From Mobula birostris (Eukaryota): DNA of 64,000 nucleotides. Both the position numbers and the translations under genes were made by a program. The stretch is taken from positions 13,404,346-13,468,345 of the forward strand of contig NC_092390.1 in the NCBI RefSeq assembly GCF_030028105.1, read 5' to 3'. The notes beneath the pieces were generated by a model that was given only the letters and a program-made list of their open reading frames with translations, was not told where the DNA came from and made no database searches. Of the stretch, positions 1,301 to 50,000 are shown piece after piece (the first letter of the stretch is position 1; every line of letters starts with the position of its first letter).

Positions 1301-2926
1301 CACCCCCCCCACCCCCCGCCACCAACACAATATAAAATAATAGATTTAAGCTTTCTGTCAATGCTGTTTTTCTATTCAGACTTAATGCAATAGTGGTCTG
1401 ATAATAAATCATGCTCAAATTTACCCCTATTTTCTGAAAGCACAATGAAATACTGAATTAAGATTAGAAATTACAGTATATTGCAGTCAAGTCAAGGTAG
1501 TTATCAGAATGCACAGCAAATTAAAATGTTCCTGCAACATTTGTTATTTTAAGCTAAACACCTCAGTACAGTTCTGGTCTTAAAACTAACAGCAGGAAAA
1601 ATACAATGGACATAGATACTGAGACTACTAATTGTTACCCGTTTTCACTATATGCCACACCAATGACTTTCCTTAATTCACCATCAAGCGATAATCAAAA
1701 TGCCAGAAATGTCCTAAACAGCAAGCAGCAGAGAATCTACCATTGAATTTGGACTGCAGCACAATGTTGAATCAAACTAATGAGAGCTTTATACAGCATC
1801 TTATCAGGTTAGTGTGAAACAGGGCACCTGGAATGAATCATAACCCTTATCCAGCTTTAACATACTTCACTATTCTGTCAATAAAAAGAATAAGTATTTC
1901 CAACAATTAACTGCATATGATGTAAAGATGAGTAAATAATAGTCAACTCAAGAGGTGTGGCAACTAAATTTAAATAGATACACAAAATTATATACTCAAA
2001 CATGAATTAAGTCAGTAGAATTTTAAAATTTAAAATAAAAGCTAGTGTCAGGCAAGCCCAATACCACTACTGCCATATTTTAAATTAGAAACTTCTAAAA
2101 AAAAATATCTCCAGACATGTTCTTAGTGCCCACCTTTTATTTATCTGATGATCAATAACAACAAATGGAAAAAAAAGGATCCCTTTTCAATATGGCCACA
2201 GTTCCACAATACTTGCAACTTGGGTCTAAAAATTGACAATTTACATTTTCCCTTAAAAATATACATTAACGTGAGCTGCTTCTAAAAAAAATGAGTAACA
2301 CCAGTTTTTGCAAAGTAAGTATCCCTCCAACACATAAAAACCAAAATAGATAAATATTGTCTCATATCATTTATGCAAAGAAAAATCAGAGACTTGTCTA
2401 CGGCTTACATTATCTCTAGTTATTGCCATCTCAGGATCTAGCTGAGAATTTAATATTTTCCTTTGAATTCCATTTCACATTTTCACCTTTGCCAAGGCAA
2501 GCCAAAACTAATTACTATTCTCAGAACAAAAAAAATTTAAACACAAAAGTGAAAAATCTGTTTTAATTATTTTATACAAATTCCATTGATAGAAGGACCT
2601 CCAAACTTCCAGGAAGATTTTTGCAAAATGAACTTCACTGTAAAGTCCATTTGTTTGTTTGTTTCATTAACAAAATAATGTATTTTATTAGTCATGCTTA
2701 TGCCTCATCCAATTTTTGAAGACATTCATTACTCAGTTTTCTATTTAGTGGATAATGAGCATAGACAGTGTCTATTAATTTACAGAACATTTAGTTTGAG
2801 TCCGAAAACTTGTCTTGCTCTCCCATCTCTAAAATGCAAACCTGCGGAATACAAGAAACAAAAAAACCTGCACTTTCCTTCTGATTTTATTTTGGGAGAC
2901 TTCATTAAAACAAATTAAGTGTTTAC

Positions 2927-2991
2927 CTTCAAACAGGCTGATATCTTTAGAAGTCAAGGTCCAAACAGCCAATCCAAAAAGCTTTCAAACC
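2927..2991 (-). pseudogene. LCOR: Decayed copy of the LCOR 'GFESILEGLFGPGLLKDLSLF' exon (in-frame TGA plus 1-nt deletion)
   Basis: The minus strand reads tcctataag|GG TTT GAA AGC TTT TTG GAT TGG CTG TTT GGA CCT TGA CTT CTA AA- GAT ATC AGC CTG TTT GAA G|gtaaac, i.e. GFESFLDWLFGP*LL(K)DISLFE. It is 65 nt long, whereas 66 nt is needed to keep frame. AG and GT are intact, and the entry phase matches exon 17694-17790. Confidence 0.75.
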
Positions 2992-4014
2992 CTTATAGGA
3001 AAACAATTATGACAATATGAGTGCAAACAATCATTCTGGCAACAACCCATAGGAGCTGAAATAGTAAGAGTTAATTTTAGAATTTTAAAATCTAACAAGT
3101 TGTTGCACAGCATCATCAAAATGCAATAAACAGCATTACTCAGTATATTTACAAACAATGAACATTAGCAATTTAAACATCTCGTCAATATTTATAAGAA
3201 ACAGAATTTAGCTGGAAACTAACTTCATAATACAAGCATTGTTGACCCTTTGCTGTACATTAAAATACATGGTTGGCAGACAGAATCAATAATGATTCAT
3301 TAAATATAACAAGAGCTTCACTGTATATTGTGCTTTACTTAACCTGCAGTGCTTGATGTAATTATTCATGTTCCAGTGCATGCAGACAAACAATTGTTTC
3401 TTTCATTGTTATAACAATCAGGCAACTGAAAGTGCCCAATCCTTTACACACCACCTATACAATATCAGATTTAATATCTGTCTGCATGTCAAATTAGATC
3501 ACTTACTATACTTTTGAGGAAAGATTTACATACTTTAAAATTAAACTGCATGACACCTGCTTTGACCAAATCATATGAACATCAGAAATAGCAGCAGGGA
3601 TTGGCAATTGACCATCTAAGGCTATTCAGCCATTAAATAAGATCATAACTAAACTTAAAGCTCATCGAATTCCCAATCATCATATCCCAGTAGCATCCAA
3701 AAATCTACCAATTTCAACTTTGAAAACTTTGTGTAGTGGTACAAGACGCTTGGCTCATCTCAACAAGTCTTCAGTATTTCTGTGCTCCAAACTTATTGTG
3801 ATGAAGGCCAATTAAACAATTTGCCTTCCTAGTTGCTTGCTGTATCTGCACATTTACTTTGTCTTTTGTATGAATACAATTCTGCACAATTCACTATTTT
3901 CACACCAATAAATTAATTACTCAGCTTTTCTACACTATCACATTAATTTGTATGAGCAGAGGTCAGCATCAGTATATTAGACCAAAGGGCTGTTCCTGTT
4001 CTGTACAAATATGG

Positions 4015-5510
4015 CAGACATCCCACCCTGCAAAAACTCATTTGAAGGAGGTAGTACCAACACCCCTGTCCCCCGCAACCCCACATTCCACCCCCCCCCA
4101 GTCGACCTCCAAGGGTGCATGTCTACAGGACATTTGATTATGAAAGAACACAACAATTTATTTGATCACATATTGAAACTATTTACACATATATATTCCT
4201 TGTTGAGTATTTTTTTGGCAGTCTCAATGCTAATAGCTAAATGCAAATACAAATAGCTTTTCTATTTCTTTTGCAAACTTTCCTTGTACTGTGATGTGGC
4301 TTGCTTGGCAGATTTGAGCATTTTGCCAGAAGTCTCAACCTCATAGCAGTCTGTATCAATGAATTTATTAATCTTGCAAGACATCAGATTCACAAGTGTT
4401 TTGTGAGACAGCTGACTTTTGAATTGTCTTAATGTGATGCACCAGGCTGAATGCCCTTTCTACATCACAATTAGAATTTGGCGGCACCAAAAGCAGCTTC
4501 ACAAACTGGTAGAGCTCTTTGAATTTCAACTGCCTTGTGCTCACAGATTTTACTTTGGATAGCTTCCCCCAGAACTCATCAATTGGCAAACTTTTGCAGT
4601 TTGGCACCAGTCCTTCAAGGTTAGTTGAGACATAATCCAGGACTTCCAAGTGGAGCTGTTCTCTTGCATCTGCCTTGATCACATTTGGAAATCTCAGCTC
4701 TAGTGACCTTCTCTGTCAGACTTTGGTTTTCTGCTGAGAAGAACTATGAAATACTTGAGCAGCCTTCCCTGCACTTAGCCTCCCTAATATGTTGTGATCT
4801 CCAAAAGAAATAAAAGCATAAGGTGTATCCTTATTATATTGTTTTATGCAGAAAATGTGACATTAAAATATGTACTTATATTATCATGGAGTCTTTTTTT
4901 ATTCTATTACAACTTTAAGCAAGTCTACAGGGAGTTTGGCCTCATCACGTAGGACATCAATAGACTCGCTCCTTAGCAGCTAGCCAGCTAGTTTAAATAA
5001 CGTTAGCTATGCTAATGAATGAATGACACCTGCTAAACTCACCTCAACATGTCTTTTACAGTCATTTAACCTACCATGAGCAATAGAAAAGTCACTGCGG
5101 CAAACAGCACAGCAAGCAACCCTGTCATTTTTTTTTACCCCTATTAGGCAGGGGTACACTTTATTGTAGTCTGGGGTGAAGTATACTTTATATTTTCTTT
5201 TTTTGGAATACTCTGCCATGGTGCTGCAGGACACTAAACTGAACTGATGGACAATGAAAGGGAGAGAGAGGTCGACTGTAAAGCCTGCCCACAGAGAAAA
5301 CTGATTGGTCTCTCTTTGTGCTAAGTAGACCTATCAGGATGCTCTCTCTGTCACTCTCTCACTATGTCTGTCACTCGCTCTCTCTGTCTGTCTCTCTCAA
5401 AAAAATCTATTTCCGGGATATTGTATATAATTTGCAGGCGTCAGGGAGCCGCTATCAATATGCAAGGGTGGGGGGCACTCCTGGAACTTCCGGGAGAGGT
5501 GGGATGTCTG
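4015..5510 (-). mobile_element. Internally deleted hAT DNA transposon
   Basis: TIR CAGACATCCCACC...GGTGGGATGTCTG. The minus strand has a BED-type zinc finger (CAVCRSDFSIAHGRLNDCKRH) and a hAT dimerisation motif (FW...PPNSNCDVERAFS). Confidence 0.85.
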
Positions 5511-6059
5511 CTATGGAATTGTACTCCACCTGTCATTTTCATGCTCTGACCATGCTCTGATCAAACTGACCTTCCTAACTAGCTTTGAATTATCAGGAAA
5601 CAGCTATTTTATACCCATTCTTTTCAGCTGTCATGTATGTAAATTCTGCTTTAGGCTAAAACTGATCCTATCAACAGAGCAACCTGAAAATGTCCTGCTA
5701 ACTTCTACTTACTTGTTTTCTGTCCTAGTACCAATCTACCACCAATGATAAAAGCTTACCTTTAACAAGACCTCCTATTTTAAGTAATCTTTTCTGTGAC
5801 ACCTTAGCAAATAAATTATGAAAAATAAATATTTTCTATCTCCTGCCTATTTTTTGTTACTCCACTGTTCCCCCCCAGAAGAAAATAGTACAACCAGCTG
5901 TTAAATTACTAATATAATTCACCACATACTGTGCAAATAAAATTGATTAAAGTCTTGTGTATTACCATGGATGCCAGGGTTGCTTAAACAACTACTATGA
6001 AACTAACACACATTTCAACCTCACTGACAATCAACACATATGCACTTCAAAGTTACGTG

Positions 6060-8250
6060 CTTAGCTCTCTACTCTACTCATGACTGTGTGGCTAGGCACA
6101 GCTCAAACACCATAAATTCACCAATGACAACTGTTGTTGGCACAATCTCAGATGGAGACAAGGTGGTGTACAAGAGTGAGATAAACAAGTGGTGTCACAA
6201 CAACATCCTTGTATTGACTGTGGATTTCAGAAAGGGGAAGTTGGGGGAATACACGCCAGTCCTCTGAGGGCTCAGAGGTGGAAAAGGTGAGCAGTTTCAA
6301 TTCCTGGGTGTCAGCATCTCAGAATATTTGTCCTCGGCCCAACTCATTAATGCAATCACAAAAAAAAGCATGTTCATTTTAGCATGTCAGGAAAAACTCT
6401 AGTAAATTACAGATGCACTAGGGAGAGCATTCTGACTGGTTGTATCACTGCCTGATATGAAAGCTCCAATGCACAAAGTCGAAACGGGGTTGTAGACTCT
6501 TGCCAGCATCATCACAGGCACAAGCCTCCCCTCCATCAAGGATATCTTCAAAGATAGTTCCTCAAGGTGGCATCCATCATTAAGGTTCATCCATTTATCT
6601 CATTACTACCATCAAGGAGGTGGAACAGGAGCCTGAAGCCTACATTCAATGTTTTTGGAACAGCTTCTTTCCCTCGGTCAACAGACTTCTGAACAGTCCA
6701 CAAGCCAGTGAACACTATTTCATCATTCCTCTTCTGCACTATTTTATGTTTTATTGTACAAACCCCATTTCCAGAAAAGTTGGGATATTTTCCAAAATGC
6801 AATAAAAACAAAAATCTGTGATATGTTAATTCATGTGAACCTTGATTTAACTGACAAAAGTACAAAGAAAAGATTTTCAATAGTTTTACTGACCAACTTA
6901 ATTGTATTTTATAAATACACACAAATTTAGAATTTGATGGCTGCAACACACTCAACAAAAGTTGGGACAGACTTAAAATAAGATTGAAAAGTGCACAGAA
7001 TATTCAAGTAACACCGGTTTGGAAGACTCCACATTAAGCAGGCTAATTGGTAGCAGGTGAGGTATCATGACTGGGTATAAAAGTAGCGTCCATCAAAGGC
7101 TCAGTCTTTGCAAGCAAGGATGGGTCGTGGCTCACCTCTTTGTGCCAAAATTCATGAGAGAATTGTTAGTCAGTTCAAAAGGGACATTTCTCAACGCAAG
7201 ATTGCAGAGAATTTAGGTCTTTCAACATCTACAGTACATAATATTGTGAAAAGATTCAGAGAATTCAGAGACATCTCAGTGTGTAAAGGGCAAGGTCGGA
7301 AACCACTGTTGAATGCGTGTGATCTTCGAGCCCTCAGGCAGCATTGCCTAAGAAACCTTCATGCTACTGTGACAATTATAGCCACCTGGGCTCGGGAGTA
7401 CTTCGGAAAACCATTGTCACTCAACCCAGTCCGTCGCTGCATCCAGAAATGCAACTTGAAACTGTATTACGCAAGGAGGAAGCCATACATCAACTATGCA
7501 GAAACGCCAGCGGGTTCTCTGGGCCCGAGCTCATCTCAGATGGACCGAAAGACTGTGGAACCGTGTGCTGTGGTCAGATGAGTCCAAATTTCAGCTAGTT
7601 TTCGGAAAAAATGGGCGTCGAGTTCACCGTGCCAAAGATGAAAATGACCGTCCAGATTGTTATCAGTGAAAGGTGCAAAAGCCAGCATCTGTGATGGTAT
7701 GGGGGCACATCAGTGATGAGTTGCATGCATGTGAAGGTACCACTGACTCTGAAAATGAATGGCGCATCATGAAGAGGAGAATCAGACAACGGAGACCACG
7801 GACTGTTGAGCAGCTGAAGACTTATATCAAGCAAGAATGGACAAAATTTCCAATTGCAAATCTACTACAATTAGTATCCCCAGTTCCAAAACGATTAAAA
7901 AGTGTTATTAAAAGGAAAGGTGATGTAACACAATGGTAAACATGGCTCTGTCCCAACTTTTGTTGAGTGTGTTGCAGCCATCAAATCCTAAATTTGTGTA
8001 TGTTTACAAAATACAATTACGTTGGTCAGTAAAACTATTGAAAATCTTTTCTTTGTACTTTTGTCAGTTAAATAAAGGTTCACGTGAATTAACATATCAC
8101 AGATTCTTGTTTTTACTGCATTTTGGAAAATATCCCAACTTTTCTGGAAATGGGGTTTGTAATTTATAGTAATTTTTGCCTTGCACCATAATGCTACGAC
8201 TAAACAAATTTCACGACATGTCAGTGACAATAACCCGTTTCTAATCCCTC
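6060..8250 (+). mobile_element. Rex1/Babar LINE relic (6060-6756 and 8162-8250), split by the Tc1 insertion
   Basis: RT remnant HDCVARHSSNTI...TTVVG. The 3' tail resumes right after the Tc1 TA duplication. Confidence 0.75.
6759..8159 (+). mobile_element. Tc1 DNA transposon, defective transposase
   Basis: TA duplication at 6757-58 and 8160-61. TIRs of about 210 bp starting CAAACCCCATTTCCAGAAAAGTTGGGA, with internal direct repeats. Paired-like HTH (from ATG 7120), SDES and VMVWG motifs. Frameshift, stop, and a deletion removing the second catalytic D region. Confidence 0.95.
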
Positions 8251-9739
8251 TATTCATCAACATTCTTTATACCATTTTATACACTTGTTATTCCTTTGAC
8301 TTCCCAAAAATCATCAGGATTAAATCTCATTTTATCAACACTGCATGCAATTTTCTAATCTGATCTATATTATCTGACCTCAGCTATAAAATGCCAATTT
8401 AATATGCAAATTTCTTAGTACTCATCTAATTAAGTGTTGATAACATTAATACTTTTATTCCACATTATACAACTGACCATGATATCCTGATTATCTGGAA
8501 GTTTATCACTGAATAAATTACAGAAGTATTGAACATTCAATATACATACACACATGAACAGCTCACATCATCAACAATCTCCAGTAATTCCAAGTGCCAG
8601 ATGTAAATAAGTGACATGTAATTTTTAGTCAATATACTAAAAGCAGTCAATTCACAATTCTAGTCACTCTCATTTCTTCTCCTTTCCTCACTAGCCCGTC
8701 ATCTCCCTCTAGTTCCTCTCCCTTTTTTTCCATGGTCCACTGTCCTCCATTAGATTCCTCCTTCAGCCCTTTACTTCTTCCATCTATCCCTTCCCAGCTT
8801 CTTAGATCATTCACCCCCCCACCCATCTTTCCCTTAATCTCACCTATTACCTGCCAGTTGACATATTTCCTGATGTGCGTATATGTATATATGCATATAC
8901 ACACACAACTCCAGCAAATCAGGAAACATTAATAAATAATACTGTAAAAGAAAAATCTCTGATACCTGCAAAATACATGCAAAGAGAAAATTCACCAGGT
9001 TTTGCAAAACAAGTAGAGGCTAGGCAGTTTAGAAAATTGAGAATCCCAAAATAAGTTCCATAATATAAGCAAAACAACTACAGAGAGGGAAAAATTGCAT
9101 GGAAAAATTTTGTCACATTGTCCATGAATGATGTAACAGCACAAGAAAATTTTCATAGACAACACACAGGAAGCACAATTTGTTTCTCGTGCTCCCAAGC
9201 CTGTTACTTTCCATTTGCTAATTTTACCATATTGAAACTTTTGAGCTAAATAACACAGAAGTATAACATTTGGCCAAATTTGCACCATGAGCACTATCAA
9301 CAAATACTGCTACTCCTAATAGACCATTGAACTATGTCGCAAATACAACAGCTTAAAAGGGGAAGTTGGGATCAAACTTTAGGGGTAAAACTTGTTGGGG
9401 AGTAGCAATGTTTCCTTGGCAGCTGCTGCCATTGACCCTCAAACCCAGTAGGTTCCACACATCACAAAGCAAATTAACAGACAGAACCAGCCAATGCTCC
9501 GTGCTACTGGGCTCAGCATGGGCTCCAGAAGGACAGCTGTGCCGATTTCTCCAGTACAGTAGTTTCATTGGGGACTCTGCTCATAGATCCCACTTCAGAA
9601 TGCTCAAACACATTCATTTCAAGGGAGATTTTATTGCTGCTGCAAAGGCAGCAGAGAGGGACTTTTTGTTTCAGTTATTTAGTAGCCATCACATATTTAC
9701 GTGGTTTGATAACCTAGATTTACAAGTTATTAACAAGTG

Positions 9740-12700
9740 TAGAACCATATCTGCACATGCTCAACATCCTTCCATTCTCTGACTATCTGTGCGTCTGTCT
9801 AAATGCACCTTAAACTTGGCCATTGTATCAGCTTCTACCTGGTCACATATTTCAAGCATCAATCCTTCTGTGTAAAAAAAACTTACCCCCCCCCCACTTT
9901 AATCCTATGCCTTCTAGTATTTGATATTATACCTCAATTTTATATACTTCCTTTAGCCTTGATTTTCTAGGATAAACTAGCATAGCCAATGTAGTGTCTC
10001 TCCAAGGCAACATCCTAGTGAACCTCTTCTACACCCTCTCCAAAGGCATGGCCTCTTTCCTGTTGCGTCAGTACCAGAACTGCACAATATTCCATGAGGC
10101 CTAATCGAAGCTTTGAATTGTTGCAATATGATTTTAGATTCAATACCCCAACTGATGAAATTATACTATAGACTTTCCTTGCCACTTTGTCACTAGCGTT
10201 GCCACTTTCTGGAACCTATGGATTTCAACCCCAAGACTACTTTAAATCAACAGTCCAAAAGGCCAACCATTTACTGAACACTTTTCTCTGGTATTTGACA
10301 CCCCACCTGCTAACAGATCACCTTATGCCTGCCCAGATGAAACTCCACCTGCCATTTCTCCTCCCAAATATACTGATGACAACTTTCTTCTATCCACATA
10401 CAGGTTTCCCCCGCCACCCGAAGGTACAGCGTTCCTATGAAACGGTTCGTAAGCCGAAATGTCATAAAGCGAAGAAGCAATTACCATTTATTTATATGGG
10501 AAAATTTTGTGAGCGTTCGCAGACCCAAAAATAACCTACCAAATCATGCCAAATAACACATAAAACCTAAAATAACAGTTACATATAGTAAAAGCAGGAA
10601 TGATATGATAAATACACAGTCTATATAAAGTAGAAATACTTTTCCACAATCATTACTGAACTGTTCACCGTAGCGAAAATCTCATGCAAGCACCGTCGGC
10701 AGAAAATCTCACGCAAGCGCTGTGGCAAAAACATGGCGCAAGCACTCTCCAATAACCTTTAAGCTATGAAGCTGCCAAATCACACCAAATAACACGTAAA
10801 AATACACAGCCTATATAAAGTAGAAATAATGTATGTGCAGTGTAGTATCACTTATCGGAATCGGGACAGCGCCGAGCACACTGATGATGGTGTGTTAGGC
10901 TGAGTCATCGCAGGTTGGATCGTGCAGTGGCCCCCACCCTCCAGGCCACCGAGCGATGCATTGCCGTGAAGCGTGCAGGAATGCAGCAGTAGCCGGGAGG
11001 TACACAGCACATCTTTAAGAAAAAAGCCGAAATAAACAAGCTAATTAATTAGGTGCCACCTAGCACATAAATGTCACCCAGATCAGTGCCGATTTCCGAT
11101 TGCATCGCCTCTGATCTGGGCCGACAATTACGTGTCGGCGGCACCTAATTAATTAGCATGTTTATTTTGGCTTTTTTCTTAAAGACGTGCTGTGTGCCTC
11201 CCGGTTACTGCTGCATTCTCTGCGAATCGGTACAGTATCTGTCCGTGGCCTGGGGGTTGGGGTGGTGGGACACTGGGGTGCCATCTCGTCGCCTGTTTCT
11301 ATTAGAGCAGGAAGCTCATCTTCTCCTATGACTGCACACCTCGATGTCTAAGGTCGAGGTTCGTCCTCTGCTGTGGCTGATGTGGAAGGCTTGCTTGACT
11401 GCTGAGCCTCGCGCATTTTTCTATCACACAGTTTTTTAATAAGGACTCAAACCATCCTGCAAATATCTCCTAAACCGATGTACCCTTTCAAAATTAAGTG
11501 GTACTTTATCATTACTCATTTGGTTTCGATTGTTATCCTTTTTTCTTCCAATTGCATCAGCTCTTCATCTGTCAGTTCTTGGTAATGGGATGCCAAAACC
11601 TCTTCAACATCATGTTCGTCAGCTTCCACAAGCCAAACTCACTTCGTCCTTACTTCGTTCACCACGATCGAAACGCTTAATTATGTCTAGTTTTACCATA
11701 AGTGTAACACCCTTATGAGCTCTTTCAGCTTTTCCGATACCTTAGAACTCATCTTGCAAACAGCTGCTCACAGGCACGTGTTAAAGCAATGCCGGCGAGA
11801 ATCTGAGGCAGAGCGGCTGCTCGGGGCACACACTCTCATTTATCGTGCGCTGATTTTTTTTCGTAACAGTGAAAACACTTTCTGAAAGCGAAAACAGGGT
11901 ACTAATGTAGGTCTTTCGTAACAGTGAGGTTTTGTAAAGCGAACGTTCAAAAAGCGGGGGACACCTGTATTCCAATTTTCACTTAAGCTACAAGCATACT
12001 AATCAGATTACCTACATTCACATCCAAAACATTAACAGACCCCAGTACTGATAAATTATGGTATAAAAGTGGACAGACCTCCAGTCAGAGAAAGACCCCT
12101 CTCCCACTACCTTATTATCTTCTATGACAAAGCCAGTTTGGATTCAATTTACCAACTCGTCATGGATTCTATGTGACTGAATCAGCTGGATCAGGCCATT
12201 ACGAGGGAACTTTGTCAAATACTTTTACTAAAGTCCATGAAGACACTATCCACTTCCCGATCCTCAACCATCTTCTTCACTGCCTCAAAAAGAAATCCTC
12301 AATCAAATTTGAGAATCAGGGCCTCCTCCAGACAAGTCCAGGCTTTTCCAGATGGAAATTAGTTCTATATGCAAGAATTTTCTCCAGTAACTTCTGTACC
12401 ACTTAATGCAAAGCTCAAGCCTATATTTCCTGTGTGTACCTGTTACTCATCTTAAGGACAACATTGGCTCATTTCCAATCCTCTGGTTTCTTACCAATAA
12501 CAAAGGATACAAGGATCTGTTTCAAGGCCTCAAATCTTCTTCCTTGCTCCTTTTAGTAACCCTAAATCCCATAGAGCCTGGGAATCTATCCACTTTCTTT
12601 TTTAAAAATCATTTCCTCCTTAATATCTACGTCATATAGTCAAGAATATCAATACACCCTTCCTTAATCTCACTATCAATGTCTTCTCCTTTGGGAGTAC

Positions 12701-12900
12701 TAATGCAATGTGTTCATTAGAGGGGCCTCACCAATGAACAAATTTCCTTTCTTGATCTACTCTTTGTCCAGCTACCTTCTTGCTTCAAATTCACATGCAA
12801 AATGACTTTGGAAACCTATCTGCCATGGACATTTCATGGCCCCTTTCAGCACTACTATTTTCTTGTTTAATTTCTTTCCCATCTCCTTTTTATTCTTCAC
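9740..12900 (-). mobile_element. Old CR1 LINE relic interrupted by a Tigger element
   Basis: Degenerate CR1 ORF2 motifs on both sides of 10401-11967 (e.g. ttgtcaaatacttttactaaagtccatga = reverse of MDFSKxFDK). Confidence 0.6.
10401..11967 (-). mobile_element. Internally deleted Tigger/pogo DNA transposon
   Basis: TA-flanked TIRs CAGGTTTCCCCCG / CGGGGGACACCTG. The minus strand has an N-terminal HTH remnant (VKLDIIKRFDRGERSKD) joined to the C-terminal remnant DVEEVLASHYQELTDEELMQLEE. Confidence 0.88.
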
Positions 12901-13949
12901 ATTGAAAAAATTAAATGTTTATAAAGGCTTTGAATAACAAAGGCATTAATAGTGCTTGAAGTAGTAAGTGACAATTGTCAGTTGTTTCCTCAGTGGTTTC
13001 TTGGCTTTTTCTCAATTACCCACATGATTAAATTAGGTTACACAAGGCCCTTCAACTATACACAGCCAAATTCACAATGATGTATAAACAAAGGATGTTG
13101 GATAGTTAATTAACAGGGACATTAAATACATTTGATATTTAACAAATCTGTAAATCTGCAAAGTCTTCTCAATTATCCAAGAATTAAGAAAAACAGAATG
13201 CCTGACTTTTAATTCCTGAACTATATTGACAACTGAAACATAAAAAAATGCTTTTGTACAGATAACATATTAAACAGCCTCCTGATGAAAAGTATCAATG
13301 TATAGATAAAATAGAAAGGTACAGTTTAACTATGATAATCTTCATGACTGAATACAGTACTTAGGAACATTTATACAGTATGCTCATATTGAAAAACTTT
13401 TTTATTTGGCAATGGACAAAAAGTTTAGAAACTGTGACAATTTAAAATCATTCTACCAACCCACATCTTCAGGGGAAAATGACTAAACGGGAAAGAAGAA
13501 AATAGGTGTTGCCTACATGAGTACAAAGCTTTAGACTTGAGATCTGATTGAAAGATAAAGCCTAGTCAAATTAACAATTGCGTTGAAAAGAACTGATTCT
13601 GCAAAGGTTGCAGAATTTGCACTGAAAATAACAATCATTCTGCAAAGGTTCAATAGGAAACCACAGTACTCCTCACTTATGGTGTATGGTCAACCCTCCT
13701 GTTCTAGTAATGAAATTAGTATGCACATCTGTGATTAGAGATTTCTGATATTCCTGACACTGAATGTAACCCCACTAATTACCTCCAGCACTGCAAAATA
13801 AATATTTGTTTTACTTATTGTTCAGCAAATAACTTTCAATCCATGTCAATATATTAGCCACTAATATCACACCTCAAGCTAACCTTTTCAGGGACTTCAT
13901 CAAAGGCTTTATGAACATCCAAGTATAAACACATCCATTGGTTTTCTTT

Positions 13950-14570
13950 TACCCATTTCAATTCACTTCCCATTCCCTCACTGACATATCTGTCCACAGC
14001 CTCCTCTACTACCACAATGAGGCTAGATGCAGACTGGAGGAGAAACACTTCTTATTCCGGCTTGGTAATCTCCAACCTGACAACATCAACACTGATTTCT
14101 CCAACTTCTGGTAACCCCTCATTTCCATCTTTCTAAACACTCCCCCCCCCCCCCCATTTACCCACATCCTAAAACTTCCTCACTTGTTCTCTTCCCCTCC
14201 CCACCCTCACAATCTGCTCACCGTTTCCCTCTGGTCACCCATCTCCTTCCCTTTATTCCATGACCTACTGTCCTCTCCAATCAGATTCTTTTTTTCTTCA
14301 GTCCTTTGCCTTTTCCACCTAATGCCAGAGTTTCTCATCATTCCTTATCATCGCGCCCTCCTCCACTTACCCATTACCTGCCAGCTTGTACAGCTCCTCC
14401 TCCCTTTTTATTCTGCTTCTGCCCTCTTCCCTTTCAGTTCTCATGAAAAGTCTCGGCCTGAAACATCAAATGTCATTTCCTTCCATAGATGCTGTCTGAC
14501 CTGCTGTTCCTCCATAATTTTGTGTACATTGCTCAAGATTTCCGGTATCTGCAGAATCGTTTGGGTCTTG
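13950..14570 (+). mobile_element. Penelope-like element 3' part
   Basis: GIY-YIG C-terminal remnant (HFNS...RLEEKHFLFRLGNLQPD), pyrimidine-rich UTR, degenerate hammerhead. Confidence 0.75.
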
Positions 14571-15189
14571 ACTCTGTCCTTATTTACTATCTTGTTACCT
14601 CATTCTATACAATAGCTTCTAGCATTTTCTCCATTACTGATGCCTGAGGTTTACAGTTTTCTCTCTCCCTCATTCTCATATAATGGCATTGCATTTCCTA
14701 CCAATCAGTGGTGTTTTATAATCTGCAGAATTTTGGGTAATGATAACCGATGCTGCTTGTGCTGTTCTGCTGAACATTGTGGGCATGCTGTGTTGGCACC
14801 AGAATGTGTGGTGACACTTGTAGACTGCCTCCAGCATATTATTGGGTGTGCTTGTTGTTAACACATGCAAAACATTTCACAATATGTTTCAATGTATGAG
14901 TAATAAATCTGAATCTACTACTATCACAGCTACCTTCTTTAGGATGCAAAAATTATCAGGCCCTGCAGTTTTATTGCCTCTTGGTGCCATTAATCTAGCA
15001 TTATTTACTAAGTTTTAATTTCCTCTGGTTCCTTGCCATTAGGCTCTCAATTCCCTTACATTACAAGAAAATTACTTCTGCTCTGTGAAACTAGAATCAA
15101 AGTATTTGCTTAATTGCTTTGTTGCCCATTTCTGACTCAACAGAACCTACACTTGAATTTACCAATCATTTCCTTATTTGTCAAAACTT

Positions 15190-15790
15190 CTACAGTCCAC
15201 CTAATATCTCTACAAGAAGGGTCAGAGCCGTCTCTATTTCCTGAGGAGACTGAGGTCCTTTAACATCTGCCGGTCGATGCTGAGGATGTTCTACGAGTTT
15301 GTGGTGGCCAGTGCTATCACGTTTGCTGTTGTGTGCTGGGGCAGCAGGCTGAGGGTAGCAGACACCAACAGAATCAACAAACTCATTCGTAAGGCCAGTG
15401 ATGTTGTGGGGATGGAACTGGACTCTCTCACGGTCGTGTCTGAAAAGAGGATGCTGTCTAAGTTGCATGCCATCTTGGTCAATGTCTCCCATCCACTACA
15501 TAATGTACTGGGTGGGCGCAGATGTACATTCAGCCAGAGACTCATTCCTCCAAAATGCAACACAGAGCGTCATAGGAAGTCATTCCTGCCTGTGGCCATC
15601 AAACTTTACAACTCCTCCCTTGGAGGGTCAGACACCCTGAGCCAATAGGCTGGTCCTGGACTTATTTCATAATTTAATGGCATAATTTACATATTACTAT
15701 TTAACTATCTATGGTTCTATTACTATTTATGGTGCAACTGTAACGAAAACCAATTTCCCGCTGGGATCAATAAAGTATGCCTATGACTAA
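15190..15790 (+). mobile_element. Rex1/Babar LINE 3' end, little diverged
   Basis: Open C-terminal ORF MLRMFYEFVVASAITFAVVCWG...RHRKSFLPVAIKLYN, followed by an AATAAA and short-repeat tail. Confidence 0.8.
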
Positions 15791-16189
15791 ACATTTACTC
15801 TCCTACTCTAGTTTTGTTCTCCTTTGTCTTTATTTGAGAAACCTCCCCTGCTCCCAACTCAAGTTTTCCGCCAGTTGTGACAATCCTATATAGACTCTTA
15901 TTTGAATCAAATATCAACATTAACTTATTTTGTTAGTCTCAGTCAAATCATTTTCCATTTTTATGTCAGCTGGGAATGGATACCTTCACAAGGCAAGTAT
16001 GTGGCTGTTCATCATCTATCCATCACCAAGTCTTTAAACCCCAGTCTAGCATAATCAATTCAAAACTCACGTCTTCAAAAATGTTATTATGTTTAGAGTT
16101 TGCATACTAGCTTTATATTTAACTACTTCACCTTCTTTCAAAGCTGTCAAGGGAAAAAGGAGGACTGTTCGGATACTTGTGACAAACCA

Positions 16190-16410
16190 GAGCTTCCCAC
16201 CGCTGTCTGTACGTTCTCCCTGTGACAGCATAGGTTTCCTCCAGGTGTTCCAGTTTCCTCCCACAGTCCAAATATGCATCGGTTGATATGTATTGATCAT
16301 TGTAAGCTGTCCCATGATTAGGCTAGGGTTAAATCGGGGTTGCTAGGCAGCATGGTTCGAAGGGCTAGAAGGGATTATTCCGTACTGTATCTCAATAAGT
16401 AAATAAATTT
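16190..16410 (+). mobile_element. V-SINE with CR1-type tail
   Basis: V-domain core GGTTTCCTCCAGGTGTTCCAGTTTCCTCCCAC; tail gaagggattattccgtactgtatctc-(aaat)n. Confidence 0.7.
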
Positions 16411-16639
16411 AAATCATTTTTAACCTGCTCTCCACTATACTCCCATTACATTGCTTACATAGACAAGTCAAAGTAATTCAGAAGTAAATTTATCCTGGAA
16501 AAAAAACTAGACATTTTCCATTTGTATACATTAAATACTACACTCTCTTTATCGCCCCTTTACAAGCTTTACAAGGTGCATTAGATTAAAAAACAGGATA
16601 TTTCTGTCACCATCCTACTTCCCACCAATATAATTGGAT

Positions 16640-16770
16640 AACATGAGAAAATCTGCAGAAGCTGGAAATCCAAAGCAACAACACAAAATGTTGGAGGAAC
16701 TGAGCAGGTCAGGCAGCATCTATGGAAAAAGAGTAAACAGTCGACGTTTCGGGACCCTTCTTCAGGACTT
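16640..16770 (-). mobile_element. Short PLE 3'-end fragment
   Basis: Same terminus (atctgcaga.gctggaaatcc..agcaacacacaaaatg) as the GIY-YIG-bearing PLE copies. Confidence 0.8.
16739..16769 (-). ncRNA. Shortened hammerhead motif in a PLE 3'-end fragment (sense to LCOR intron)
   Basis: agtc-CUGAAGA-A-GGGUCCC-GAAA-C-GUC^gacu: core intact, 5 nt of the helix II loop deleted. Confidence 0.55.
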
Positions 16771-17220
16771 CGTTAGTTAGCTCGAAGAATACGAGGCAAG
16801 GTTTAGAGTAGATAAAGCGTGGGTAAATCAGAAATCGCATTAAACTCCTTTCACGATCCCCACCACCAAAACATAACACAAGAGCAACAAGAGTACAGCC
16901 TCAGAAGAAAAATGATTATTGCAAATATCCATCACAGAAATCGCTTCCAGGTTAAAAAAAACAACCTTAAATGTGTCACAATACCATCACAACATCGCAT
17001 TGCATGTTACGATGCCTCATCTGAAATCTGCAGCAGTTTCCACAGGGCAAGTATACGCGCACCATTTCCTTTCAAAGGCAGTAAGAGAAGGGGAAGGGAA
17101 TGGGAAAGAAACAAACGCCAATGCCAAAGGCTGCAAAAATAAAGCCAACGGGCAAGGTACACAGTGGGGGCAGGAAAGAAAGGAAGGTGATGATTAGAAG
17201 GGGGAAGGGACAGGGAGACA

Positions 17221-17270
17221 GACTACAATTCCCATGATGCCCGGTGAAACACCATATCACTGCGCACGCG
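17221..17270 (+). promoter_or_regulatory. ZNF143/Staf-type motif plus NRF1-like motif in LCOR intron
   Basis: GACTACAATTCCCATGATGC (17221-17240) matches the ACTACAnnTCCCA consensus; TGCGCACGCG at 17261-17270. Confidence 0.6.
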
Positions 17271-17693
17271 CGACGGCCTGATGCTTCGGATCTCCACTCC
17301 GCGCACTGCCTCTCCCCTTTATATTTTTTAAAAAACTAATGGCTTACTTCACAAAACGGACGAAAAGTAAACGGTTGAAACAGGGAGCAGGGTGAGAAAA
17401 GAGCTAAAATCTAAACGGAACAGTCTTGAGAAAAAAGAGGAATATCTCCAACTGAAGAATACCGATAAACCTGAGGTAAAATATTAATTTAACCAAACGG
17501 TGATTAATAATATCGGGCGAGGAAGAGAATGTTTGTATTTTGTGATGACGGTCAGCATATTTGAGCAATTTATTTTGGGACACGGGCACTTAAGTATAAA
17601 CTGTCGATGGAGAGGTGGTCGGGGGGAGAGGAGTTCTGCTCCTTTTAACCGTACCCTTCTCGATTCCCGGGAAGGAGAGTAAGTAAGGCTTAC

Positions 17694-17790
17694 CTACACA
17701 GCGGATAACTTTGTGCCTCCAAGTGTCAAGCTCCTGTCGAAAGCCAAGCCTTTCCTTCGAACAGTGTTGACCGTGACACGGGCTGGCCAT
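17694..17790 (-). CDS. LCOR: LCOR (ligand-dependent nuclear receptor corepressor), first coding exon of the N-terminally extended form
   Basis: The ATG at 17790 gives MASPCHGQHCSKERLGFRQELDTWRHKVIRCV-G and ends at a phase-1 donor G|GTAAGC (GT 17693-17692). This matches the recalled LCOR/LCORL N-terminus (ERxGFRxELDxWRHxxIxCVG). The MASPC start and proximity to EXOSC1 favour LCOR over LCORL. It lies in a CpG island. Confidence 0.85.
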
Positions 17791-18003
17791 GTTCTAACGG
17801 GGTTGTGTTTGGGGTAAGAAGTGGGTTGGGGGAGGGGGTTAAACTGTTCCATAAGCATCCAACCCCTCTCCTCCTCCTCCTCCTCCACCACCACCACCAC
17901 CTCTACCGTCGCCGTCGTCATCAACGACAACAACACGGTGACGGCAGCCGTAGGAAGGAGGCGGGGCGATGGGGCGACGGGTCGGACGTGCGCGCACCCA
18001 TAC

Positions 18004-28169: not shown

Positions 28170-28197
28170 ATGGCGCCGGTGAAGCTTTGTATCCCAG
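28170..28197 (+). CDS. EXOSC1: EXOSC1 exon 1 (MAPVKLCIP-G)
   Basis: ATG in good Kozak context (gcgATGg); donor G|GTAATT. Confidence 0.93.
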
Positions 28198-31100
28198 GTA
28201 ATTGCGGCCCTGGGGGCGTCAGAGGATCTGGGCGGGTGGATGGCCTCAGTAGCTGGGCTTTGGGGCGGGAGAATGTGGGGGATGTTATCGGAAGGGGGGG
28301 AGAGGGTGTATGGGAGATGTTACATGTGTATGTGTGGGGATGTGGCGTGGTTGGGGGGGAAGGAGTGATCAGGGGAGAGAATGATCAAGGGAGGAGTGAG
28401 ATCTAGTGCTGAGGATAGTTAAGGTGTTTTTGGATTCTTGTTGTTAGAAGATTGCATGCTTTCGGGCAGGTGGGGCTCGCCAACCAGAGTTGGCAGCTTT
28501 TCTAGAGGGAAAAATGATTTCAAAACTCTGCTGCTTTGCGGCTATGGGGAAGGTTTCGAGAGCAAACGCCAAGGAAAAATCCAGAGCTGGAGTCACTAAG
28601 GTTGGGTCCAACGTTGGCTGGCAACTCCTGTGACGCCGCTGGTGCCAAACCGTATCGGATTCTGCGGTTCCTTTGGATTCATTAGCTGCGTGGAGAGGGG
28701 AAGCTTGCTGCATGGGTAACGGCTTGCATCCCATAGCGTGCTGCCCTGGTTTGCATATCGACTGACGGCGACAATGTGGACAGCTAGGACGTAACATCCA
28801 TGGTGGACCCCGACCAACGGAGGCTTTCAATTAATGTATTAACGTGTGTAATCTCGTGTTGCATGCTTACAGGAGAGAGACTGTGCAGTATAGAAGACAG
28901 CACTCCTGGGGAAGGCACCTATTCCAGACACGGATACATTTTTGCGTCTTTAGCTGGATATGTGATGAAGAGAAATGATAATGGAATGGTGGGTAAGGCA
29001 AGTTGTCATCGATGCTGGCTCCGTTTGAGTACTCACTATGTGCAGTTTGTTCCTTGCTCATCCCTGCATTTTAGCTGCAGCACCAGAGGGAAGGTCCTGT
29101 GGCAGGTGAATCTCAGGGAAAGGCATATTGTTCACCAGTGCTAGTTTAAGAGGCTTTGCTACACTTATTACTAACCAAATCAGTAATTGGTTTTGTTGTT
29201 GTCACATGTGCAGAGATACAGTGAAAAACTTTGGTTTATTTATCTTCCAGAGATCTCATTCCAAACATAATTATATTAAGGTAGCTCAAAAGGAAGGTAA
29301 TACAAAATGCAGAATCTTTAAGAACTTAATTCAATTCCCCACTTGACACTTGATTCTGTCAGAAGGATATGGACTAAAACTCTTCTCAAGAAATTTGGTT
29401 GCATAATTAAAGTTTACTAGTTTTGAATGTGTTTATCAGATCAGAAACTAAATTGGGACTTTGACTGCCCTCTCATGGAGGTGGGGAATATTCCTCTTGA
29501 GTTATTTTCAAGAACAGTGCAAGAGCTTTTCCCTGGCCAATATTTCTTCCTTTCTCCATCTCCTCATCTTTACAGCAGGATCATCGTCACTGAGAAGCAC
29601 ATTATTTGAACACAGCATATGTTGTCTGTGTCAAATAATAACTCCACTTTAAAGTTCCTTGATTGTAAAGCACTTTAGTAATCTCTGGAGGCCATGAGAG
29701 TGTAACATAAACACCAGTTATTTGGTTTGATGCGGAGGAATAAAAGATAGAAATGTCCATTTCATGTAGGGTACAAATGAGTGAAGAAATCCTACCCCAG
29801 ACTTCCTGAGTTTAAAAGTTTCCCCTGGAGTTAATACAGTGAGAGTCAGTTGTACAGAAAGTTTGCAGTTGGCATGATTAATTTTTTTTGCATTTGTTAG
29901 GGCGACACGGTAGCTCTTACAGCTCCAGCAATCCACCTGCTAAGGACCAATTCCCGCAGCTGTCTGCAAGGTGTTTGTACATTCTCCCTGTGACCATGTG
30001 GGTTTCCTCTTCGTGCTCCAGTTTTCTCCCATGTTCCAAAGGTGAATGGATTAGGGATAGTGGGTTATGGCCATGCTGTATTGGCGCTGGAAGCATGGCA
30101 ACACTTGTGGGCTGCCCTCAGCACATCCTCGAATTGTGTTGGCAGTTGAAGTAAAACAATGCATTTCACAATGTTTCAGTATACATGCAACAAATAAGGA
30201 TAATCTTTTTAAAAGTCTCTCTTCGTTCCACTAACTATGGGGCATAACCCAGAGCACTAGCATGGAGGTTAACCCAGGATTGCTGATCTGGAAAAATTGC
30301 AAAATCTGATTTCAGTAATGGTGATCATAAAGCTACCAGATAGACATAAAACGCCTCCAATTCCCTCATGCCACCCAGGAAAGGAAATCTGCTGTTCCTA
30401 TCCATCATGTCTTCCATGCTTCTTCTGACCCAGTTTGAGCTGGACAATAAATGTAGCCTGATCATTGATGCCTATGTCCTGTGAACAAATAAGTATTCAA
30501 AATAGATCGTCCTCAACTTCACATGAGAGCACAGTGTGATCGTTCGCTGGGCAACATTCACAGCTGATGTTGCTGACTGTTGCTGCTTCCTTCATCAATG
30601 CTGCTGCTTGGCTGAGACTGAGCAGAGAGCGGCAGGTTTCATGATAAGTTGGTTGCAATTAGTAGGAAGTCGGGAGAAACTTCTATATCTGCAGTTTGGT
30701 CAGAGTGTTGAATTTGTAACAATGGAATAGTTGAAGTATTTAAAAATAAAAAAGGAAAACTGAATAAATAAATGTGTCATAGTGTAATACTGCACAAAAT
30801 AGGCCTTTCGGCGCAATTTGTACATACTGACTAAGCTATCCATTTTCCAGCGTTTGACCCATATCCATCTTAAATCAGGGGTTCCCAATATTTTTTTATG
30901 CCGTGGACTGTTATCGTTAACTGAGAGGTCCATGAACCCCGGGTTGGGAATTCCTGCTCTGAATCTTCCCTATCCATGAGGGAGAAAGGATAAGATACAC
31001 ATATAGACACAGCTAGCTGGATACAGTCCTATAGCCTTTGTCATAATTACATACAATTTTGCACTAATTCCAATTTGGTATTTGTAGGTGCCCATTATAT

Positions 31101-49442: not shown

Positions 49443-49619
49443 CATTTTACTTATAAAATTAGATAGGTAGTGCGAAAAGAGGAAACTTAGTGAGGTACTG
49501 TTCGTTATCCATTTAGAAACTTGATGGGGGGGGTCAGGGGATGTTGTTCTTGAAACGTTGTGCAGGCTCCTGCATTGTAATGCATTAGCTGTGATGGATG
49601 GCGAGTAAAACTGGAATAG

Positions 49620-50000
49620 GGGGCCAGTGGGGACACCTCCATACAGTCCTGCCGCCTTCCTCTTCCGACGCCACCTGTTCCTTTGTAGGCACGTAAATCG
49701 AACATACCTCTCAACAATACCTCATGCCTTGCTGTATGAATGGGAAGGAAGGCTGACGGGAACTGTAGTTTTTAACAGCAACACCGCCGGAGGTTTCCTT
49801 TCGCTGACATTAACTGGACTCCAGTTCCCAGAATGCGCCGGGTGGGCTGCGGCATGCCGGATTATTGCGCAGGTGCAGTTGGAGCGTCCCGTCTTTTGTT
49901 ACTTCAACTGGGTTGACGTGAGGTGGCGGCGGGAGTGGACGGGAGGAGCGGCCGCCGTGAAAGAACACGAGAGAGGTTGCCGGAACAACGGTGAGAGCAG
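49620..50000 (+). promoter_or_regulatory. CpG-island promoter and probable non-coding first exon (donor ACG|GTGAGA at 49991) of an unidentified gene
   Basis: CpG-dense non-repeat block. Two ZNF143-type motifs (ACTACAGTTCCCG on minus about 49757-49769; GGACTCCAGTTCCCAGAATGC 49816-49836), TGACGTG about 49914, and a pyrimidine-rich stretch after the donor. Confidence 0.65.

Follow-up and report, generated by a model that had tools for sequence, protein, structure and literature searches.

The corepressor gene LCOR gives rise by splicing to PALI1, a form that carries an NR box together with CtBP- and PRC2-binding regions, as described in PMC8864842. In the long LCOR isoforms of vertebrates, such as those of axolotl (XP_069467691.1), Dama (XP_061018259.1) and paddlefish (XP_041116922.1), coding exons 1 and 2 open a 142-residue extension ahead of Met 143, from which the annotated short isoforms begin. 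Conservation of this extension spans hagfish and lamprey to primates; paddlefish, frogs, birds and primates have it open, and so do sawshark LCORL and lamprey. Annotation places short isoforms with this downstream Met as their start in axolotl, Xenopus, sheep and primates. Exon 2 is symmetric, measuring 66 nt in intact relatives, and its in-frame skipping has been seen in other vertebrates; among 200 family proteins, 65 use exons 1-2-3, eight join exon 1 to exon 3 and 11 join exon 1 to exon 4, the rest having another first exon with exon 2 (59) or without it (16), or a later start (41). Poison exons of the SR-protein type are minor at steady state, rise when NMD is blocked and often lie in ultraconserved DNA. 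Neither the extension nor its loss nor a uORF is mentioned in the accessible parts of PMC8864842, PMC5343783, PMC6155025, PMC11177368, PMC12223765 and PMC6886504, the last of which, in that part, mentions LCOR for its last exon only. A literature search that covered few subscription papers returned no work that treats this exon, describes an LCOR uORF or deals with LCOR in cartilaginous fishes.

At the LCOR locus of Mobula birostris, analysed in a window of 64 kb (the whole stretch of DNA, to which all positions refer; Table 1), the exon-1 and exon-2 peptides and the phase-1 junctions correspond to those of the long isoforms; whereas both exons are open and strongly conserved in those isoforms, here exon 2 is interrupted by a stop as well as a frameshift, and the score of exon 1 is the lowest in the family. 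The protein predicted here would start as do the LCOR/PALI1 short isoforms of Xenopus (NP_001122135.4) and Colobus (XP_011806589.1), but species with short isoforms also have an intact long form, which exon-2 inclusion precludes here from these exons. The exon-2-skipped isoforms of Xenopus, snakes, bat and sciurids leave the same exon out of the protein, with an ordinary exon 1 and the frame kept; in contrast, exon 1 is degenerate here and the contigs listed point to inclusion. Exon 2 resembles SR-protein-type poison exons in being a splice-competent internal exon with an in-frame stop, one of the marks of a poison exon, yet it looks like the assembled path, is derived from a coding exon and has seemingly decayed neutrally.

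Table 1. Features of the LCOR locus and its surroundings in the 64-kb window. L001 and L002 are the two intact exon-2 references described in the text.
Feature	Position	Strand	Remarks
LCOR coding exon 2 remnant	2927..2991	minus	65 nt (intact relatives: 66 nt); both junctions in phase 1
TGA, exon codon 13	2954..2956	minus	in frame with exon-1 ATG; end of a 44-codon ORF when joined to exon 1
A run	2946..2948	minus	one base shorter than in L001; frameshift 3' of the TGA
Exon-2 acceptor AG	2992..2993	minus	same column in L001 and L002
Exon-2 donor GT (AAG/GTAAAC)	2925..2926	minus	same column in L001 and L002
Internal AG (2946-2945) and lesion-free 18-nt tail	2927..2946	minus	frame-keeping as acceptor; use hypothetical
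LCOR exon 1, coding part	17694..17790	minus	97 nt; ATG, 32 codons + 1 nt; open, degenerate
Exon-1 donor GT (GTAAG)	17692..17693	minus	RNA-type contigs of two species leave the genome match here
Out-of-frame upstream ORF	17694..17921	minus	ATGs at 17921, 17858, 17852; overlaps ancestral start; TAG is the last three exon-1 bases
CpG-rich stretch around exon 1	17501..18000		GC 0.54, CpG observed/expected 0.86
EXOSC1/CSL4, first two coding exons	28170-28197, 28873-28988	plus	head to head with LCOR; ends read from sequence
Tc1-like transposon remnant	6757-8161		215-nt inverted repeats, 96% complementary; transposase HTH fragment 7087-7578
Palindromic element	10932-11262		82-nt arms, 93% complementary; very high copy number in the runs compared
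hAT-like transposon remnant, LCOR intron 1	4053-5520		weak dimerisation-domain match 4368-4712, below cut-off
Third CpG-rich stretch	49501-50000		135-codon frame, no Pfam match

The exon-2 remnant was aligned with two intact 66-nt references from a metagenome contig scan, one encoding an LCOR-type peptide (L001) and the other an LCORL-type peptide (L002). Read in the exon-1 frame, the remnant gives GFESFLDWLFGP and then the TGA at 2956-2954; the alignment places a one-base gap at codon 16, and the DISLFE tail lies in a different frame from the start of the exon. Across the 66 columns the window differs from L001 at 16 and from L002 at 19, while the two references differ from each other at 15, and all three have AG and GT at the same columns. 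Four substitutions, the stop included, fall within codons 5-13, and all four are to T. Codon 5 encodes F, where 61 of 61 distinct family peptides have I; the W at codon 8 occurs in none of the 61 and the D at codon 7 in two, whereas the F at codon 10 is LCOR-like. A profile built from 97 family exon-2 peptides scored the remnant at 42.0 bits with one frameshift, the weakest family member scoring 55.3; because the next independent site in the window reached only -18.6 and the top of 10 shuffled controls -7.1, the homology is not due to chance. The preliminary description had reported a broken LCOR exon 2 with this TGA, a one-nucleotide deletion, several replacements and both splice sites intact, and alignment and profile bear out its coordinates, its lesions and its splice sites alike. 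Upstream AGs that would restore a multiple-of-three length (extensions of 64 and 100 nt) were considered as acceptors and set aside: the TGA region is still included with either, and support for them is absent.

Of 24 sequencing runs, four were compared with positions 2800-17860 at 80% likeness: X5, from this species, and X10, from a second species, both taken by guess to be RNA; X19, from a third species and recorded as RNA; and X6, from the second species and taken by guess to be DNA. Repeats dominate the comparison, with 877 differences, 150 gaps, 1,380 joints and 7,418 loose ends beyond those listed. A single X6 contig (record 25) spans 2800-4037, that is 1,238 bases including exon 2, with 13 other letters and five gap letters; all five gap letters stand for bases that the relative has in addition, and exon 2 could hold one of them. 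Divergence between the two species is 1.4% (98 differences over 7,032 bases in the eight X6 pieces listed), at which a single lineage would gather four substitutions within 65 nt with a P of about 0.001; the exon-2 lesions are thus likely older than the split of the two species and would be common to both.

These comparisons bear on one reading put forward in the preliminary description, namely that the real exon 2 is open and 66 nt long and that the assembly is in error. The deletion does lie within an A run, a typical place for a long-read error, but four substitutions in codons 5-13, among them the stop, are unlike homopolymer error, the 13 letters by which the second-species DNA differs over 1,238 bases do not exceed the 1.4% seen elsewhere, and the degeneracy of exon 1 is confirmed by an X5 contig. 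We therefore regard an assembly error as very improbable.

Exon 1 retains an open frame, three Cys and a Trp, and an ATG in a strong context (A at -3, G at +4; ATG at 17790). To this extent the preliminary description, which called the upstream coding exon intact, was right; the peptide itself is degenerate. Against a profile of 46 distinct LCOR and LCORL peptides from 164 proteins, including hagfish, lamprey and sawshark LCORL, its 28-residue core scored 66.6 bits, compared with a leave-one-out minimum of 85.2 and a median of 99.7 for the family. The weakest member is that of hagfish, and lamprey and sawshark LCORL are outside the 12 lowest; since all three outscore the window, the drop does not come from distance alone, although the named comparators include no chondrichthyan LCOR and lineage distance may account for part of the divergence. 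Three residues of the window peptide are found in no family member, compared with at most two in each of the 12 lowest-scoring members listed. The X5 contig matches exon 1 without a difference over 165 bases, so the degeneracy is real and not an assembly artefact. In neutral simulations of the 97-nt exon at 5-11% change, the ATG was kept and the frame remained open in 22-59% of cases; the open frame thus requires no selection.

Judged by its sequence, the exon-1 peptide is best assigned to LCOR and not to LCORL. Position 8 is Q, the residue that all 30 distinct LCOR-type peptides have there, and 16-20 of 28 residues are identical to LCOR-type peptides, versus 14-18 for the remaining ones. A phmmer search with exon 1 over 1.84 billion representatives returned 120 matches, headed by axolotl LCOR (76%). 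A word-index protein search with exon 1 gave no match at 78-2000 or 24-77 residues; this method also misses relatives that phmmer finds, and its blanks are therefore uninformative on the uORF peptide. The EXOSC1/CSL4 exons, which have a CpG-rich stretch of their own, begin at 28170 on the opposite strand, 10 kb from LCOR exon 1; human LCOR and EXOSC1 presumably both lie at 10q24.

The two visible exons are both degenerate, as would be expected if the whole gene were decaying, with a transcribed LCOR pseudogene, lost or made redundant by a duplicate, accumulating lesions through its main frame. That frame, which a functional LCOR has open with an NR box, CtBP motifs and an HTH_psq or DUF4553 last exon, would lie beyond position 1 together with the downstream Met. 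The search with the axolotl query points weakly the same way, in that its best 120 of 791 matches include no chondrichthyan LCOR; coelacanth, gar and bichir LCOR are missing from them too, which makes this result uninformative for chondrichthyans. Against such decay stand the CpG-rich promoter region, the presence of the EXOSC1 neighbour and spliced contigs of two species that extend more than 640 nt downstream, as well as the lowered H3K27me3 reported on PALI1 loss in mouse embryos in the accessible part of PMC8864842. Loss of the gene as a whole is, in our estimate, quite unlikely.

Evidence on exon 2 from the RNA-type runs takes the form of bin depth and contig ends; no exon-2 letters and no exon 1-exon 2 joint occur among the rows listed. 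One contig of this species (X5 record 24, depth 34.1, 0 differences) and one of the second species (X10 record 8, depth 23.5, 3 differences) match exon 1 as far as 17693, one base into the intron, and the 642 and 645 contig bases beyond this point are not intron. Splicing thus takes place at the exon-1 donor in these RNA-type contigs of both species. As the match reaches 17693, the next exon begins with G, as does exon 2, unlike exon 3, which would start with A, as exon-2-skipped isoforms have D or E at the codon split by this junction. Past exon 1 the contigs continue for about 643 nt (X5) and 646 nt (X10). From tetrapod and sturgeon exon lengths, the distance to the last-exon branch is predicted to be roughly 657-669 nt with exon 2 and 591-603 nt without it; the observed lengths lie nearer to inclusion than to skipping, a weak indication. 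In X10 the bin that holds exon 2 (2800-3302) has a depth of 2.98, where 64 nt of record 8 would give 2.99; in X5 its depth is 4.95 compared with 4.34 expected, leaving an excess of about 307 depth x nt beyond record 24. The adjoining bin has a depth of 0 in both runs. Depth is also 0 in both exon bins of X19, which is not evidence of absence. From these depths and contig ends we infer that the contigs carry this copy of exon 2.

An in-frame route around the damage is offered by the internal AG within exon 2. Were it used as the acceptor, the 18-nt tail would be kept and the lesioned 47 nt would become intron; the five lesions are confined to the part of the exon before this AG, T is the new base in each of the four substitutions, and the residues of the tail occur in the family. 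In that case, however, exon 1 would be followed by A instead of G, and the bin would show cover of 18 nt, not 64, while five lesions would fall within 47 of 65 nt by chance about once in five. We consider such a rescue highly unlikely.

A further alternative is that exon 2 is a poison or dying cassette, whose skipping joins exons 1 and 3 in frame to give an extension 22 residues shorter and whose inclusion leads to a stop, the two together forming an NMD switch. Precedent exists in the eight of 200 family proteins that join exon 1 to exon 3, in 16 more that skip exon 2 after another first exon and in the sciurid entries, six of six of which are listed without exon 2; at the locus itself, the exon-2 splice sites are retained and exon 1 is open with its three Cys and Trp. 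A productive skipped form was nevertheless not found as the main stable mRNA: the exon-1 contigs listed for both species go on with G and not with the A of exon 3, and the X10 depth fits inclusion. Contigs lose rare splice forms, so that a minor skipped form may escape them, but an NMD target is not expected as the assembled path. Moreover, exon 1 is degenerate here whereas that of sciurids is ordinary, and Rfam gave no match in 1-30000. We judge a cassette of this kind to be improbable.

Similar contig data would arise from an exon duplicate, where the spliced exon 2 is an intact copy beyond position 1 and the copy in the window a decayed tandem duplicate. The window ends 2.9 kb downstream of exon 2 and does not reach exon 3, and an intact copy at least 80% alike, also starting with G, would map to the same bin. 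No second copy of exon 2 was detected in the 64-kb window, either by profile or by a degenerate pattern allowing up to three mismatches, which gave one match; this pattern was made to accept the window's own letters and is informative for a second copy only. A weak tblastn match at 43160-43116 was considered as a second exon 2 and rejected, being outside the top profile sites. For exon 3, the best profile score in the window was -19.7, within the shuffle range of -13.3 to -25.0; of the 94 members of this profile, three score negative, probably through indels. The preliminary description had likewise seen neither an intact copy nor the next exon. A duplicate would leave unexplained why exon 1 scores 19 bits under every family member; a doubled exon 2 occurs in no family protein among those listed, and a cover so close to 64 nt suggests, if weakly, an exon nearly identical to this one. 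On this balance a duplicate is a doubtful explanation.

Together, the exon-1 donor contigs with their G-starting exon, the cover of the exon-2 bin and the degenerate exon 1 are fitted best by loss of the extension, and we think it probable that the whole extension has lost coding constraint, that exons 1 and 2 now form a leader with a 44-codon uORF, and that LCOR/PALI1 is made from the downstream Met. A long release from protein constraint is indicated by two independent frame-breaking lesions and by two residues that none of the 61 family peptides has, and the short isoforms annotated elsewhere mean that a start at the downstream Met exists. The preliminary description had offered among its readings that the N-terminal ORF had become a uORF ahead of a downstream start; this agrees best with the G-starting exon, the depth and the state of exon 1, with inclusion of this particular copy among the parts that we infer. 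The extension would have lost constraint as one unit, ahead of the split of the two species, while exons 1 and 2 would have stayed in the spliced mRNA as leader. Translation from the strong exon-1 ATG would end at the TGA after 44 codons, and LCOR and PALI1 would be made from the residue equivalent to Met 143 of the long form, which would lie about 290 nt further on if exon sizes are as in tetrapods. This Met could be reached by leaky scanning, by reinitiation or from another first exon. The putative uORF would probably reduce output and might leave some of the mRNA open to NMD, a damping that might be selected or merely tolerated.

Further points weigh against the loss of the extension with retention of its exons as leader. 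An intact exon-2 duplicate would yield the same G and a similar depth; and expression should suffer from a strong ATG ahead of a 44-codon ORF with junctions downstream, a cost that may be too high for a dosage-sensitive regulator. The arrangement could also be a selected translational brake, in which selection retains the strong exon-1 ATG together with the splice sites and the new stop, and the 44-codon uORF sets the dose of LCOR/PALI1. Such a brake would include the upstream ORF that overlaps the ancestral start as well as a transcript antisense to LCOR that begins in intron 1, and newts may have lost the extension independently; we put this forward tentatively, as rather unlikely.

An X10 contig of 1,637 nt (depth 92.5) matches the plus strand at 17267-17475, with its start inside LCOR intron 1, and departs from the genome sequence after 17475, at a GT donor; it looks like a spliced antisense transcript with an intron spanning LCOR exon 1. 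Its frame is open to the donor, with no ATG and no Pfam or PDB match. A motif just upstream, at about 17221-17240, resembles the ZNF143 site. Elsewhere in the window, some contigs skip 4054-5486 within the hAT-like remnant, and the CpG-rich stretch at 49501-50000 is possibly another promoter.

Absence of parts of the extension was also observed in other lineages. All six sciurid LCOR entries (P0198, P0201, P0222, P0236, P0242 and P0243) among the best 120 of 791 matches miss exon 2 in frame, regardless of their first exon, while their exon-1 peptide is ordinary for mammals; from these sequences, the loss of exon 2 in squirrels is possibly fixed. The newt LCOR models of Lissotriton (P0214) and Pleurodeles (P0229), which are known from annotation only, start near the downstream Met without the extension (further proteins are P0218 and P0002), and axolotl LCOR exon 2 is divergent and one codon short. 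Parallel decay of the extension in salamanders is thus possible, as read from annotation models.

The extension matched no Pfam family above cut-off and no relative among solved structures. In the ESM Atlas, exon 1 alone gave low matches and the extension gave LCORL clusters at 0.82-0.86, which serve as leads only. An AlphaFold model of a 231-residue LCOR N-terminus was mostly helical (mean pLDDT 54, pTM 0.27); this weak model, which is below the quality needed for a fold claim, has one long helix in the part encoded by exon 1 and two short ones in that of exon 2.

Coding exons that decay into a leader with a uORF are of a known kind, and a case for the LCOR extension was not found in print. 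The finding would be an ordinary one if exon 2 were a duplicate that has died or a cassette that is skipped. If the extension has been lost, exons 1 and 2 would be a coding pair caught midway on the path to a 5' leader, which would be surprising for a segment this conserved. A lineage lacking the extension would be a natural deletion mutant, and comparison of sharks and rays with or without the extension, of sciurids without exon 2 and of newts may serve to address its function. Loss of the extension would suggest that the long form is dispensable for the core work of LCOR with PRC2 and CtBP.
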